A DNA stretch of 64,000 nt from Escherichia coli (GTDB lineage: Bacteria; Pseudomonadota; Gammaproteobacteria; Enterobacterales; Enterobacteriaceae). Within the stretch, counting starts at the first letter, position 1. Every line of letters starts with the position of its first letter. Below, one piece after another: positions 46,101 through 52,100 of this stretch. The position numbers are program-made. The stretch lies in NCBI RefSeq assembly GCF_030013595.1, contig NZ_CP122769.1; one strand, 5' to 3'.

Positions 46101-49100
46101 TATGCTGTTTTCTGATGCTCAACAGTACATTCGTTATGTTCAGAGCAATGTCTGCAATAAGTAAAGGATCCGCTAAAGAAAACCGGTCTGAAATATCGCT
46201 GATAGTCCTAGCAACACTTGGAATCGCATCACCATTCATTGTCGCAATGATTACTATTAATGAAAGTATGACATCTAAAACAGTAACAGATTTTTCTTTG
46301 GGTGCTCAGTGGTACGGAATGGTTTCAGCGGTAGCGCTAATGGGGTTATATGCTCGACGCGTTTGGAAAGAGAAGAAGTCCTTATTTACTGGCGCTTTCC
46401 TGGCCTCTTCCTTAATGGCCTTTATTTTTACTGACAGCCTTGTTTTCGTATCCCAGAAGGACACCGGCGTTCTGGCTACTTTCGTACTCGATAAAAACGC
46501 TGGAGATATTGATTGTAGTCGCCCGGCTATGATTGTCCATTACAGTAAAGGTGTTCCAACGGACTGGCGTTGCCCAACCAGTATCATGTTGATGGCGTAT
46601 TCTTCATATCCTTTTTTACCCTGGCCTGAGTATAGCCATGGTACCAGCCAGTCTCTTACGGTTGTTATTGATACATTTATGGAAAACGCTGTTAATCTCA
46701 GCCAAAAATAAAAAATAAACCTCTCTAGTGAGAGGTTTTATAAACCTGAGCCACCAATCTAATTAACTCTATATTTTTGTTTTAGCTTTTTTAAAGATAG
46801 ACTTACCGAATAAAACAGCAATTATAGAGCAAAGGCCTGGCGTTAGGACAAAAGCTAATAATGCACTGCCAAAACTTGTCATTTCAGGCACCAGGAACCA
46901 GCTGATAGGCCACGTCAGGGCTGGTAAATTTAGCGGATCATAAAGCGCATGTAGAGCGCTTAACACACAGTAAAGTGCTAAAAAGCAAACTAGATAAACA
47001 ACGATCCACATTTTAATTTGCTCAGCAATTTCAAATTTTGGACTGCCCATGCTTTACCTCAGTGGCTGAATATTGATGGTTAATATCTTTAATCACCCGT
47101 AAGCACTTAGTGCATACCTTAGTTCGATTTGTCTGCTTGTCCAGAGTGTATTTAACTTCAAGTTGACCTCCAGCATTAAGCAAAGTGAGCATCTCATCTT
47201 CTAACACGCTTCGGTAAATGGTCTTGGCCGAGAGTGTGCCCGGTAAAGAGTACTCAACATAATTGTTTGAAACTCTTACCGATTTAGGGATTTTACCACT
47301 GAGCTGGGTTTCATTCGTTGAAGGCATTACAGTTACTTTAATCACAGTTGCCGGTGACCAGAAATCCTGATAACGCACTTTATGAATTTTATCAGCTCTA
47401 AGGCCTAACCACACATTTCCGGCGATAAGAACAATAAGCAATCCATAAACTGATCGTCGAATGTTACGCCTTTTAATCACAATGTCCCCCATCCCTCAAA
47501 TATCATTCTAAATAACTGCACCAGGATATCATGAGCGTAATTAATAGAATTCTTCATAACCGGGGTTTTCAGTTGAGTTTGCGGACTCTTTACTTTGCGG
47601 TTTCTCACCCTCTAGTTGAGTATCCCTGACAGGCTTGGATTTACCCATGCTCCTCTGAAAGGTATCCATAACAAACTCAATATCTTCTTCTGGCAGGCTG
47701 GTGGGTTGGTTGCTCATAGGACTTCCTCTTGTTGAATACGTTCGGCGTACAGGATGCGAACCGAAACGGTCGTGTTTTCAAACTCGTTCTCAAAAACGTC
47801 CATCCATTCCGTCCGGAATTCTTCCCCCAAAAGGTTATCGAGCCCCTGAAGAGATAATGGAAGAACGGCTGCTAGAGATCCCCCGGCTGCGAGATGAGAT
47901 GCAGCTGCCTGGAGATGCCGCCTGGCCCGGTTATCGGCAAAAGGTGGGTTCATCACGACATAATCAAACTTCTTCTGTTGATTAGACTTAGACCATGTGA
48001 GGAAGTCAGCTTCTGTCGTATCGTATCCCTTAGCCCGGGAGATAAGGCAATTCAAAGTATCAAGCTCGATGCCAGTAACGATCACACCGGCAGGGAATGA
48101 TTTAAGCAAATCCGCATGGCCAATATTAGGCTCCAGGAGGGTATCCCCTTCCCCTGCACCAAGCAGGGAAGATACATATTCGCTGATTCGGCAAGATGAA
48201 GGGTAAAACTGATGCGATACAATATCAGGCATCTCCCCTATCTGGCCGATGTAACGAATAACCTCACACGGATCATAGGAAAATGTCACATCGTATTTTG
48301 TTACTGTTGCCCCTAAGAACCGAAGGGTGTCAGCGGCAACACTCGAAGATTTGCGTTCGGCGAGAGACCCTAAAGATGTCCAGCAACTCCATTTATTGTC
48401 CCCGTCATTTTTAAACATCAGTTCAGAAAGCTGCATCCGGGTATCAAAGTCGATGCACTGCTTAAGTACAGGGAATGCCTCCAAAGATTTCTTGCTATGA
48501 GCCATACGGTCGGCAGGTAATGCCAGCGGTACGATAGCTGATAAAATATTGTTAAGCCGCTCGGCGATATCAGGGTGGACGTCAATATGCATTGATCCAT
48601 TTTTGTAAACCCTGAAACGAATACTGTTGCCATCGATGCAGATCCATTTTCTGAACCCCTCATGTTCGACCAACGCCTCAACCAATGATTTGGTGTTATG
48701 GATCGCCTTCACCTGTTCGCCACGGAAGAATGCGCATATAACGCGGAGCTCGCTCAGCGGTGAAATGCCAGACTCTTTAAAATCCACCCTTAATTTCTGC
48801 CAGGGGTATTTAGACGGCTCGCAAACTCCGGTAGTGATCATGCGGGTGGAGAACCCAAAAGCTTTGTTTGTCTTGTGACTGCGGCTCAGAGACTGGAAGA
48901 CGTCGTAAACCCTTTCTTTAATAAATTGATTGCGGTCATTAAGCAAAGCAACGACTGTGCCCACTACAGCGTCAGCTGTGAAATCAGGGATCACCTGAGG
49001 CGGCATAATATAACGGTCGGCCGTAAACTGCTTATCCCATTCGTTACGTTTGGCATCCGACATGATAGGCAAAACATCAGTGAGTGCCATAACGCGTTTC

Positions 49101-52100
49101 CAGTATTCTGATCTCAGAGCGTTTTCTGCGAACAAGGCATCCGCTTCTGAGATGCTGTGGTTGTAGCCTGAGAGATAAGAATAAAGTTTCTGGTGATTGT
49201 GGGTTTTGAACTGGACAGCCATGAGTTTCAACAAGCAGAGTTCATCATTATAGGACTCAACAAGATCCGCGATAATGCCGAGCTCTTTGCGCATATCTGG
49301 AAGAAATGTTTCAGGAGAGCTAACCACCAGGCTATGAGAGGTTGTTAAAGCCAGTACGCTGTGACCTGCATTATCGGGTTTAGCTTCAGAATCAAGAGAT
49401 GACATTTTACCGGTCCTTTAGAAAAAACTTTTACCAGGATAGCAACGTCGCTCAGTAACCTAATAGGTTCAGTGACACGAAAAAGTTTTTTATGTCTCTG
49501 AATAAAACTTAAAGATGTCAACTCATAGAAAGAAGCAAAAAAAAAGCCCCGCATAAACGGGGCAAGAACGATACATGGAGGTTTAAAAAAGGCGGGCAAA
49601 AAGCCTGAATCCTTAATGACTCTGACAAAACCAGCACTTTGCCAAAAGTAAATTATTCTGCGTCCGGCTGTGGGTCAGTATCCTGATCGGTCTCTTCCCC
49701 TGCCTTCTTAGCATTTTTTTTACGTGGGTATTTTGGCTTCTCACCATTAAGTTTTGCCTGACGATTCTCCGCACGGCGAAGCTGCTTGTTCTCTGATTCT
49801 GTGATCTCTTTTGAAAGATTTCTCAACATCTCCAGAGTACTGCGGTTCAACGTAATGTTGATTTCTTCGTCAGCACTTGAATCTGTCAGCTCCGGCAATT
49901 CAATATCCCCCAGTTTCTGTAATAAGCTGGTGGTGATGAGTTTGACGCCTTCTACGGCTTTTGTGGCAATAACCGGCGGAATCCGTGCTGGCTTGAAGTC
50001 TGAAGGTCTGACTCGTACCTGACCATGTTGGGTTTTTTTCACCGTGATGCCATTCGCATCGGCCTGCTCAAGTTCTGCGATCATCTTCTTGATACGTGAA
50101 ATTGCTTCTGTTTCGCCGAGCTCATCGATCAGTGAAAGCACGTTAACATACGAAATAGCGTCAGCATGAATCCATTTCTTGATAACAACAGAACAGGTTG
50201 TCAGGCGGATAAGAGAACTGATGGTCGTCGGGCTTTTATTTTCACGTTGAGCAATTCGTTCGAGTGACCAGCCAGCAAGAGAATGTAGGCGACGATAGGA
50301 CTCGCCAAGCGCAACAGGAGAAAGCGCAAGACCACGGTTACCATCAATGGTCGCGAGCTCACAGCCAATTTCATCTTCTTTAATCTCAACGCAAAGGATT
50401 GTGATGTCATGATCTTCATCACATGCCATCATTGCGGCTTTTAAACGGCAGTGCCCCTGGCGAACAAAAGGTACCCCATCAATGACACGTACTCGGATAG
50501 GGTCTACATAGTCACCTCGAATGTAGGCATTCTTGATGTTGTAGATGTGTTCTTCAACCTCAGGGAGCTTATAGTAATCGTCACCCATTCCCATTTCGCG
50601 GGAGTTGAAGCCTGGCGTGACCTGAATTACTGAAGGGTGGATAGCCCATGCTTTCTGGTCACTTACTTCAGTACAAAGTTCAGGGTTTGCATCACGGAAC
50701 TGTTTAAGCCCAGTGACGTAACGGCCTGTGCCAGTAACTACTGAAAAGGCAACATGGGCCGTTTTAAAGACCTTGTCATTAGCTTGCTGTGTAGGTTCTG
50801 TCAGTAAAACACTCATAGGGGCTCCGTTACATTTTTCTGCTTACTTTCTGCGTAGCGGGGATACTACCGAAAAAAAATTCATAATTTTTCGCAAAAAAGG
50901 TACTTTTTGAGCCTATTCTGATTTTTTACAAAAAAAGGTGGCTCCCCATTACTTGTGATGGCATAAAAATCGCTTCATAAACAAATACATAAATCCAAAA
51001 CATAAAGTTCAGGTATAAGTGAGGAAAAATCTTATAAATCCGAAATGCTGAAAGTCAAAACTGTGCGTCTTAAACAACTTTTTTTTGCTCCCTAAGTTAT
51101 TAGTTAAAGCCCGTGGTTAGGTACGATACCAGCACCTAAATTTCTCTCTCAGGTATAGACACTTTGACTCGACATCTCAGACACATGCCGATAATCAAAT
51201 GGGCTGGTGGAAAAACGAAACTGATGCCTTTCATCAGCCATCACTACCCACACGATCATAGTTGCCGGTGGGTAGAACCCTTTATAGGCGGTGGTGCCGT
51301 TTTTCTGAACATGTTTGCACAAAATGCATTGCTTGCAGATAGCAATCCAGACTTGATCAACCTATACAGGACTATTCAAAGACAGAAAACTAACTTTATA
51401 AATCAGGTCCAAAACTTGGCGGATAAAACCTTTGTCGAAAAGGACTACTATGAGATGAGGGACCGTTTCAACAAAACCTGTATTTCTGGTCAATCGCTTC
51501 AAAGAGCGGCTTTGTTTTACTCCCTGAATCGCCTGGGCTATAACGGTATGTGCCGCTATAACTCAGAAAGAATCTATTCAGTGCCGTGGGGGAAACATAC
51601 AGAACTGAAGCTTGACCTCAATAAAATAGACTACCTTTCATTTCGTCTTTCAGGTATTGAACTGATCACCGCTGGTTTTGAGGAGACTCTGGCCGCAACC
51701 GGTGAAGGAGATCAGATTTACTGTGATCCGCCATATGACAAAACAAGCAAAACTAGTTTTGTCAGTTACGATGGTAAACCGTTCAGCCAAAGCGACCACG
51801 TGCTGTTAGCAAATATGCTCGTTGACGCTCACAGAAAAGGCGCTGCTGTTGCGATATCAAATAGCCTGACATCATTCACTTTGGGCCTCTATGAAGAGCG
51901 TGGATTCGTCATACACAGACTCAGCGCTTACCGATCCGTAGGAAGTAAGCCGAATACACGGAAAACGGAAACAGAAATACTGGCCGTGCTGAAATAGAGT
52001 AAATTCTAATCAACTAGGCTAATCCATTCCTCAAAAGTTAATACCTCAGGGTAAGTTCGTTGAACATAAGGTATAAACTGAAGCTCTTCTATTCTCCGGT

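Follow-up and report, generated by a model that had tools for sequence, protein, structure and literature searches.

KorB of the IncP plasmid RK2 is a ParB-family global repressor with 12 dispersed 13-bp OB palindromes as its sites, and Noc, the ParB paralog of nucleoid occlusion, binds around 70 dispersed palindromes; chromosomal ParB proteins likewise use dispersed parS sites, and dispersed palindromes of 13-16 bp are the classical targets of the KorB/Noc type of helix-turn-helix (HTH). IncHI plasmids rank among the main vehicles of resistance genes, mcr-1 and blaNDM included, and to our knowledge what is understood of the regulation of their ~200-kb backbone is confined to a few tra operons and H-NS/Hha. 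Orphan methylases and ParB homologues are also typical of the leading regions of IncF and IncI plasmids (PMC11541004; PMC7736820). Here we describe a 64,000-nucleotide stretch of the Escherichia coli contig NZ_CP122769.1 (assembly GCF_030013595.1), referred to as the window, which encodes three ParB-like proteins and a set of orphan DNA methyltransferases and in which a 13-bp palindrome, AAAAGTWACTTTT, recurs as a candidate DNA target. A first-pass annotation of this sequence had listed three ParB-like and five methyltransferase genes, all eight of which are found at or near the positions it gave, and had likened them to the anti-restriction arsenals of plasmid leading regions.

The window is a conserved IncHI2 resistance-plasmid backbone. 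Megablast of positions 45000-56000 against PLSDB matched 1,123 plasmids at ≥95% identity, many of them at 100%; one 100% match is the 229-kb pEGY1-MCR-1 (NZ_CP023143.1; typed IncHI2A, MOBH relaxase, MPF_F), to which the whole window aligns at 99.98-99.99% identity, the differences being insertion sequence (IS) elements and a few single-base indels. The annotation of this RefSeq record is the one referred to below. The window covers the interval from Tra1 to Tra2, with Tra1 (mobI, the mobH relaxase gene and traD) ending at ~31.5 kb in record coordinates and traL/trhA, at the start of Tra2, lying from ~57.5 kb in the window. The ParB-like genes are:

1217-2401, minus strand: ParB-like paralog 1 (ParB1), 394 aa; phrog_1033 E 1.6e-21, TIGR00180 29.5 bits
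49653-50816, minus strand: ParB-like paralog 2 (ParB2), 387 aa; phrog_1033 E 3.3e-28, TIGR00180 32.5 bits
54026-55081, minus strand: ParB-like paralog 3 (ParB3), 351 aa; phrog_1033 E 1.9e-25, TIGR00180 33.9 bits

Family assignment, which the first-pass annotation had proposed as a check, places all three in phrog_1033 ('ParB-like partition protein'), below the curated TIGR00180 cut-off of 58.45 bits and with weak matches to the Noc profile TIGR04285 (19-21 bits, cut-off 315). They are 22-28% identical in pairwise comparisons; GFNxR, RQG..R and GN are invariant, together with an HTH segment. The motifs previously said to be shared therefore hold in part, GFNxR and the HTH being common to all three, whereas ParB1 has RQGACR and TGNSN in place of RQGHxR and DGNR (its HTH reads KSEQHLRQMVRV). 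Orthologues of ParB1 occur on IncHI-like contigs (P0029, 50% identity, and P0030), and ParB3 is divergent from the RepHIA gene at 55558-56433. A profile search recovered 1057 cluster representatives of the family at E≤1e-10, mostly of 250-440 aa and with the consensus GFNxR...VRDGHCRxRA...SNxGLxLxP followed by the HTH. Members are encoded on MOBH plasmids (IncHI1, IncHI2, IncHI1B and IncC) and by phages: Klebsiella phage Mulock, which is lambdoid, has the gene between cII and the replication gene O, with the annotation 'DNA binding protein' ('transcriptional regulator' in related Klebsiella phage records), and in a virulent Sashavirus it lies beside a C5 methylase gene and an HNH gene.

ParB2 comprises an N-terminal ParB domain, an HTH and a C-terminal helical region. 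Pfam recovers HTH_ParB (1.7e-4) as its sole domain, with no KorB domain match and no ParBc (PF02195) or nuclease domain even at E≤10, and a PDB profile search matched Spo0J, Noc, ParB and KorB (KorB at E 2e-5). In an AlphaFold2 model built from 60 homologues (pLDDT 88.4, pTM 0.77), the ParB N-domain plus HTH fold is established at the level of prediction. The best Foldseek matches of the model are CTP- or CDP-bound ParB proteins of Myxococcus, Caulobacter and Bacillus (probability 1.00 against 7bnk, 7bm8, 6sdk and 1vz0), followed by Noc (7ng0, 7nfu, 7ol9) and KorB (8qa8 and 8qa9, the latter with a TM score of 0.58), while sulfiredoxin, PadC and other non-HTH ParB/Srx proteins score much lower. 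The earlier suggestion that the ParB-like proteins might be nucleases finds no counterpart here, since the Pfam search of ParB2 gave no ParBc domain and the model resembles DNA-binding, CTPase-type ParB, Noc and KorB proteins rather than nucleases.

The ParB-like proteins resemble the ParB of a ParABS system in fold, HTH and a weak TIGR00180 match, and differ from it in having no ParA and no adjacent centromere array, the true ParB of the plasmid being another protein. No ParA gene is annotated adjoining any of the three in the 100%-identical record, and none was seen beside the ParB-like genes in the neighbourhoods looked at across relatives, among them R27, pEQ2, Buttiauxella, Photorhabdus, pNDM-MAR and IncC loci. 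The possibility that a cognate parA lay just outside the genes first called was checked and did not hold: the par loci are in Tra2, where a ParA/ParB pair (record positions 107338-109592) and a ParM/ParR pair (112698-114385) lie 9-15 kb past the end of the window. The Tra2 ParB can barely be aligned to the family described here (hhalign probability 11%). These observations support the conclusion that the three ParB-like proteins are orphans and not the partition system of the plasmid, as the first-pass annotation had supposed, with two complete par systems elsewhere and the true ParB barely related. The IncHI1 plasmid R27 offers expression data that bear on the point. Gibert et al. (2020, PMC7366339) found R0042 and R0153, both annotated 'partition protein' and R0153 adjoining a 'cytosine methylase' gene, R0154, to be induced under every conjugation-promoting condition and in an htdA mutant, whereas the true parA/parB genes (R0020/R0019) were constitutively highly expressed. 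Gene order, counted from repHIA (R0036), makes R0042 the orthologue of ParB2, and it is a guess that R0153 corresponds to ParB1; the induction pattern points to a role linked to conjugation rather than to partition.

The palindrome AAAAGTWACTTTT was first spotted upstream of ParB1, as AAAAGTAACTTTT and AAAAGTTACTTTT. The window contains 10 exact copies and 17 at ≤1 mismatch, where 0.25 would be expected (a ~70-fold excess), and none of 100 shuffles of the window reached 17 sites. The 229-kb plasmid has 44 copies of the 11-base core of the palindrome, AAAGTWACTTT, where ~0.2 would be expected (~200-fold); they are spread across 0-197 kb, and the 30-kb resistance region at 200-229 kb has none. 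A search for enriched palindromes on the plasmid gave no second one that might fit the other paralogs. Annotated coding sequences make up 75% of the DNA in the window region, where 13 of 16 sites fall outside them (P=4e-6), and the distance from a palindrome centre to the start codon downstream of it is typically 80-230 bp. Beyond those in the window, sites lie upstream of trhF and parM, in the ter, hns, hha and tus-like regions and, as a pair, in the oriT (trhR-mobI) intergenic region. The copies in the window, for which no strand is assigned, are:

2491-2503: AAAAGTAACTTTT, ~90 bp upstream of the ParB1 start
2617-2629: AAAAGTTACTTTT, ~216 bp upstream of the ParB1 start
16678-16690: intergenic copy; one mismatch in the 13-mer, 11-base core intact
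21727-21739: intergenic copy
25939-25951: intergenic copy
31142-31154: copy ~136 bp upstream of the immunoglobulin-like (Ig-like) gene 28618-31034
39083-39095: copy with one mismatch, downstream of the Ig-like gene 36560-38980
45868-45880: first of two copies in the divergent promoter region preceding Ig-like gene 43256-45712
45933-45945: second of this pair, in the same divergent promoter region
50895-50907: near-copy AAAAGGTACTTTT, core broken by one mismatch, 79 bp upstream of ParB2
52759-52771: copy inside the last of three genes downstream of ParB3
56543-56555: copy ~110 bp downstream of RepHIA; equivalent site in pEQ2 and R27
57328-57340: copy with central G, ~250 bp upstream of trhA at the Tra2 start
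starting at 60630: 13-mer copy from the window scan
62689-62701: copy ~100 bp upstream of htdT; equivalent in R27 and pEQ2

Two further copies, at 36859 within an Ig-like gene and at 60380 at the start of htdO, are coding and have a common extended match, AAAAGTWACTTTGCCTGCT, which may stem from related coding sequence or from operators. The motif is kept in R27, pEQ2, pNDM-MAR, Photorhabdus, Buttiauxella and two metagenomic IncHI-like contigs; the relatives with a conserved palindrome include IncHI1, IncHI2 and IncHI1B plasmids. Some copies stand at orthologous positions, as in the Ig-like gene, htdT and trhA promoters and downstream of RepHIA; Photorhabdus, pNDM-MAR and pEQ2 have an equivalent of the 45868 site ahead of their Ig-like gene, and the trhA site has one in R27 and pEQ2 (AAAGTCACTTT). 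A literature search for the motif string returned no occurrence in a plasmid context, and the palindrome appears not to have been described before.

The explanation we prefer, and to which we give an even chance of being right as a whole, is that the ParB-like proteins are orphan backbone regulators or clamps of the ParB/KorB/Noc fold that act alongside protective orphan methylases and have the palindrome as their candidate target. Each of the three has an N-terminal ParB domain, an HTH and a helical C-terminal region. They would be sequence-specific DNA-binding regulators of the backbone, or DNA-bound clamps, switched on together with the conjugation regulon. The candidate target has ~45 backbone copies, most of them between genes where promoters lie, in an arrangement that recalls KorB with its OB sites. 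A KorB-like regulon acting through the palindrome is no more than plausible. More specifically, and only tentatively, an undescribed KorB/Noc-like system may exist on IncHI plasmids (R27, R478 and the carriers of mcr-1 and blaNDM) in which an orphan ParB-family protein, most likely ParB1, occupies the ~45 palindromes and times or silences backbone genes without a ParA; its targets would include the tra operons, the Ig-like conjugation factors, the orphan methylase genes and the genes of its own paralogs. The palindrome and the orphan ParB-family proteins are a testable candidate for a global control circuit comparable to that of KorB in IncP plasmids and, if confirmed, the circuit and the methylases would be targets against plasmid establishment.

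The likeness to KorB lies in the ParB N-domain and HTH fold, in a 13-bp backbone palindrome with a degenerate central base, and in sites both near to and far from promoters, those of transfer genes included, although here it is the presence of sites alone that is compared. The differences are that the ParB-like genes have no adjacent ParA (IncC) partner and no identified KorA, that there are three paralogs rather than one and ~45 candidate sites rather than 12, that GERR is replaced by GHCR, and that ParB2 has no Pfam KorB domain match. With Noc the proteins have in common the orphan state without ParA, the dispersed palindromes and the structural matches; they differ in falling far under the TIGR04285 cut-off and in a plasmid rather than chromosomal setting.

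Among the paralogs, ParB1 is the most likely binder of the palindrome, judging from site placement. A pair of sites precedes ParB1 in IncHI2 (-90 and -216), a ParB1-like gene on contig L046 (-109 and -211) and the ParB-like gene of pNDM-MAR (-117 and -296). Viral sequences add further cases, with TAAAGTWACTTTA as the variant in phages where IncHI plasmids have AAAAGTWACTTTT. The phage contig L019 (IMGVR_UViG_3300050498_000031) carries 29 copies of CTAAAGTWACTTTAG in 14.6 kb, at almost all gene boundaries, and encodes a remote ParB-like protein (phrog_1033 at 1e-4; hhalign E 3e-4 over GRQRR and the HTH) with two sites upstream. A search for the binder among proteins that motif-bearing viral loci have in common with IncHI2 yielded only a Dam homologue, on phage contig L035 and with palindrome copies on both sides, remote ParB-like proteins (L019 and L027) and a helical protein of 75-87 aa.

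Several other phage-derived observations can be set beside these. Contig L041 (IMGVR_UViG_3300025925_000002) has 13 copies of TTAAAGTWACTTTAA in 14.6 kb, at nearly all gene boundaries. Klebsiella-type lambdoid prophages (L022, L023, L026, L027, L028 and L033) have 3-5 copies of AAAAGTWACTTTT in a stretch of 150-270 bp inside the nin region, positioned after a terminator and ahead of an AT-rich stretch. A conserved helical protein of 79-87 aa is encoded 2-4 kb from the array and is 36% identical to the product of window gene 13976-14203, a gene followed by its own palindrome copy 18 bp after the stop codon; this small protein co-occurs with the arrays, and shared synteny alone may account for that. 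AT-rich viral contigs (GC ~0.2) with tandem motif copies were judged to be unrelated tandem repeats and left out.

A number of results weigh against a ParB-like protein as the binder, or against the reading more generally. In the DNA fetched, the presence of a ParB-like gene does not track the 3-5-copy Klebsiella arrays; ParB3 has no upstream site, and ParB2 has a degenerate one only. The recognition helix of ParB2 orthologues varies across lineages in which the palindrome is identical, and phages Mulock and Sasha carry family members with no such motif found. No dispersed palindromes were found in the IncC locus either, and the motif is absent from family members with SEQH helices outside IncHI. 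Conservation of the recognition helix was considered as a criterion for the binder and dropped as non-discriminating, 'xxHVRQ' being the consensus of the whole family. Any nucleotide dependence is something we infer, and the signature residues complicate it: the GERR position aligns with G-H-C/T-R (G-A-C-R in ParB1), with Glu and one Arg replaced, and the ENLQR position with (D/T)-G-N-(R/S), in which the Asn is kept, so that clamping by CTP in the manner of KorB is uncertain. Lastly, the pairing of ParB-like and methylase genes is looser than was first proposed, Photorhabdus and pNDM-MAR having kept the ParB2-like gene without the methylase.

The alternative that survives best is that the palindrome is the operator of TrhR/TrhY, of HtdA or of a host factor, and that the ParB-like proteins are members of the regulon with a few private sites of their own, for instance at the promoter of each ParB-like gene or in the RepHIA region. 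It is possible, if not what we would expect, and TrhR/TrhY, HtdA or another plasmid protein is a credible binder. The sites in the oriT (trhR-mobI) intergenic region and upstream of trhA, htdT, trhF and parM would suit it, as would the response of R0042 and R0153 to htdA, the Klebsiella prophage arrays without a nearby ParB-like gene, and a motif that is conserved where the ParB2 recognition helix is not. It has to contend with the fact that dispersed 13-16-bp palindromes are what ParB-family HTH proteins such as KorB and Noc classically bind, and with the motif-bearing phage loci, in which no homologue of TrhR, TrhY or HtdA was found. When 100,044 species genomes were scanned for paired 13-mers, the matches within the Enterobacterales were IncHI2 plasmids only, the others being in Bacteroidota, Ignavibacteria and further non-enterobacterial or AT-rich contigs; no host chromosomal regulon is therefore evident. 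The 44 sites also extend across the backbone to ter, hns, hha and tus-like regions, whereas the published data (PMC7366339), on our reading, give only a few non-tra genes as htdA-induced.

Turning to the second part of the preferred reading, namely the orphan methylases, the window encodes the following:

22364-23614, minus strand: beta-class DNA methyltransferase, 416 aa; PDLC03323 E 1.2e-46, SPPY and C-terminal DPFAG
23783-24403, minus strand: small S-adenosylmethionine (SAM)-methyltransferase-like protein, 206 aa; phrog_15480 E 3.5e-34
34345-35106 (or from 34282), plus strand: stand-alone NPPF (gamma-type) methyltransferase, 253/274 aa; NPPF, phrog_9133/15406
47714-49405, minus strand: DUF4942 plus NPPF DNA methyltransferase, 563 aa; phrog_6263 E 9.5e-113, full length
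51185-51997, plus strand: Dam-family N6-adenine methyltransferase; TIGR00571 228.1 bits, cut-off 114.85
49546-49563, minus strand: intrinsic-terminator-like hairpin between ParB2 and 47714-49405; 7-bp stem (6 GC pairs) ahead of a T-run

Four of these are, by their sequences, DNA methyltransferases with intact catalytic motifs (DPPY, SPPY and NPPF twice). The fifth, 23783-24403, is SAM-methyltransferase-like only, with weak matches to spermidine synthase and RsmA and no DNA-methyltransferase motif IV in its sequence, and the earlier count of five stands to that extent. The 47714-49405 product matches DUF4942 (4.9e-22), MTS (3e-5) and N6_Mtase (2.4e-3) in Pfam and has its NPPF at residue 486; its catalytic C-terminal half is paralogous to 34345-35106 (BLASTP 2e-12, 27% over 183 aa), as had been noted, and the latter also matches PADLOC MTase_II/mad2. 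The Dam-family gene is divergent from ParB2, with DPPY at residue 188 of the open reading frame (ORF) and KWAGGK kept if the start is 51185. The start given in RefSeq (equivalent to window position 51224, within the ORF 51164-51997) cuts off this N-terminal SAM-binding KWAGGK, and the ATG at 51185 is more likely the true one. No nuclease partner is annotated adjoining any of the four DNA methyltransferase genes, in agreement with the first-pass annotation. Elsewhere on the plasmid, NZ_CP023143.1 encodes a stand-alone DUF4942 protein (191102-191920) and a Dcm-type C5 methylase (194972-196399), so the methyltransferase set of the plasmid exceeds the five of the window. We infer that the orphan Dam, beta-class and two NPPF enzymes, predicted to be active, probably protect or mark plasmid DNA, by methylation that would favour survival of restriction after transfer and may also set epigenetic marks; they are candidates for the means by which wide host range is achieved through restriction evasion. 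Literature searches on DUF4942 and on IncHI methylomes gave nothing relevant.

The neighbourhood of these genes is conserved among IncHI plasmids: R27 and pEQ2 (both IncHI1) and the Buttiauxella plasmid have in common the order RepHIA, ParB3-like, a 66-aa product, a zinc-finger-like protein, a ~280-aa product, Dam (convergent), ParB2-like, DUF4942 methylase, a small ORF and the Ig-like gene. The intervening genes of the window are:

52006-54008, minus strand: three genes downstream of ParB3, for 66 aa, a 238-aa zinc-finger-like protein and 285 aa; same order in R27/pEQ2

ParB2 is ~75% identical to its R27 counterpart, and ParB3 is conserved beside RepHI1A in R27 and pEQ2 and beside a Rep3 gene in Buttiauxella. 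R0037-R0043 and R0153/R0154 of R27 are accordingly an orthologous module in the same order, differing by sequence divergence only. The module has long been sequenced and is functionally uncharacterised, in R27 too; the palindrome is the new element here. In Photorhabdus and pNDM-MAR the Ig-like gene directly follows the ParB2-like gene. On IncC plasmids an orthologue of 22364-23614 (50% identity) has a ParB-like gene of 30% identity ~1 kb upstream, and comparison with IncHI indicates that ParB-like genes and methylases travel together with their pairings shuffled. Within the window, ParB2 does lie directly upstream of the DUF4942 methylase gene, as first noted, but the 247-bp gap between them holds the strong terminator-like hairpin listed above, and the two may not share a transcript.

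A leading-region anti-restriction arsenal, in which the ParB-like proteins would be nucleases or anti-defence effectors (Osa-like ParB/Srx proteins) that the recipient expresses early along with the methylases, is the comparison first drawn for this locus, and we consider it rather unlikely. On F-type plasmids the relaxase side of oriT enters the recipient last. Here oriT lies at ~20.7-21.3 kb of the record, between divergent operons, and the window begins ~14 kb from it on the relaxase (mobI-mobH-traD) side and spans 14-80 kb from it, with ParB2 and ParB3 another 45-50 kb on, some 60-70 kb from oriT and past two replicons:

41003-42148, minus strand: RepHI2 replicon
55558-56433, plus strand: RepHIA initiator gene, the second replicon inside the window

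The literature on MOBH/IncHI oriT and the IncHI leading region gave no source establishing the polarity of transfer. Between 8.8 and 33 kb nearly all genes run along the minus strand, towards Tra1/oriT, an arrangement compatible with transcription from the T-strand if transfer ran through the relaxase operon. The occurrence of orphan methyltransferases with ParB homologues on a conjugative plasmid and their co-induction with conjugation in R27 are features in common with the IncF/IncI islands (PMC7736820, PMC11541004, PMC7366339), and in IncC, as in phage Sasha, methylase and HNH genes do occur close to ParB-like genes; this part of the comparison stands, while the position of oriT and the lack of annotated hallmark genes speak against it. 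Those islands carry ArdA, PsiB, SSB and M.EcoGIX, whereas no ardA, klcA, psiB or ssb is annotated across the window, which does not stand to oriT as a proven leading region would, and its methylases belong to the Dam, beta-class and DUF4942/NPPF families. Nor do the proteins themselves suit the effector role, given the missing ParBc or nuclease domain in the Pfam search of ParB2 and a model with a canonical ParB HTH, to which sulfiredoxin and the non-HTH ParB/Srx proteins compare poorly.

It is improbable that the ParB-like proteins are the DNA-targeting subunits of the methylases, or of a 794-aa DndC-like 3'-phosphoadenosine 5'-phosphosulphate (PAPS) reductase encoded in the window, the site modified being the palindrome core, GTWAC, and with pairs such as DndB/DndC or IbrB/IbrA as analogues. 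Methylase neighbours that differ by lineage (DUF4942 and Dam in IncHI, beta-class in IncC, C5 in Sasha, N6_N4 in L047), the palindromes flanking the L035 Dam homologue and the DndC-like gene itself could be taken to suggest it, but there is no fusion and no strict adjacency, a terminator separates ParB2 from its methylase, relatives keep ParB2 and lose the methylase, the PAPS reductase gene is 14 kb from the closest paralog, and the enrichment of the motif favours a binding function over a mere modification target. Equally doubtful is that the proteins are accessory centromere-binding partition proteins, serving individual replicons (ParB3 with RepHIA) or working in trans with the Tra2 ParA, with the palindromes as parS sites: the ParB fold and HTH, the constant place of ParB3 beside a replication initiator gene, the 'partition protein' label in R27 and the dispersed parS sites of chromosomal ParB proteins are outweighed by the lack of an adjoining ParA in any relative examined, two complete partition systems already on the plasmid, expression that follows conjugation, unlike the constitutive R0020/R0019, and family members in lytic and lambdoid phages that need no partition.

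Some other features of the window can be noted. The DndC-like gene belongs to a locus at 15154-19180, with an HNH endonuclease gene downstream; its product (16796-19180) matches PADLOC DndC at 4e-38 and reaches 117.6 bits with TIGR03183, under the cut-off of 290.4, and no dnd partner genes are annotated beside it in the matching record, so it is possibly a DNA-modification enzyme without dnd partners. Positions 39742-40570 and 42388-42890 hold ten tandem 81-bp repeats, each with an inverted pair of a sequence that recurs in the 21-bp repeats upstream of repHI2 (TCACTACCGTTGTCA); the array is probably related to iterons, with a role in copy control or incompatibility, and not a ParB centromere. 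At 29397, a T-run within the Ig-like gene 28618-31034 is one base shorter than in pEGY1-MCR-1, which splits the 796-aa Ig-like gene into ORFs of 241 and 585 aa; the gene is a pseudogene through frameshift, or the homopolymer was misread in sequencing. Finally, an IS21-family element (IstA 390 aa, IstB 266 aa) is inserted at 6303-8272, at the spot where pEGY1-MCR-1 has IS421, and a further IS421 copy is present ahead of Tra2 in pEGY1-MCR-1.

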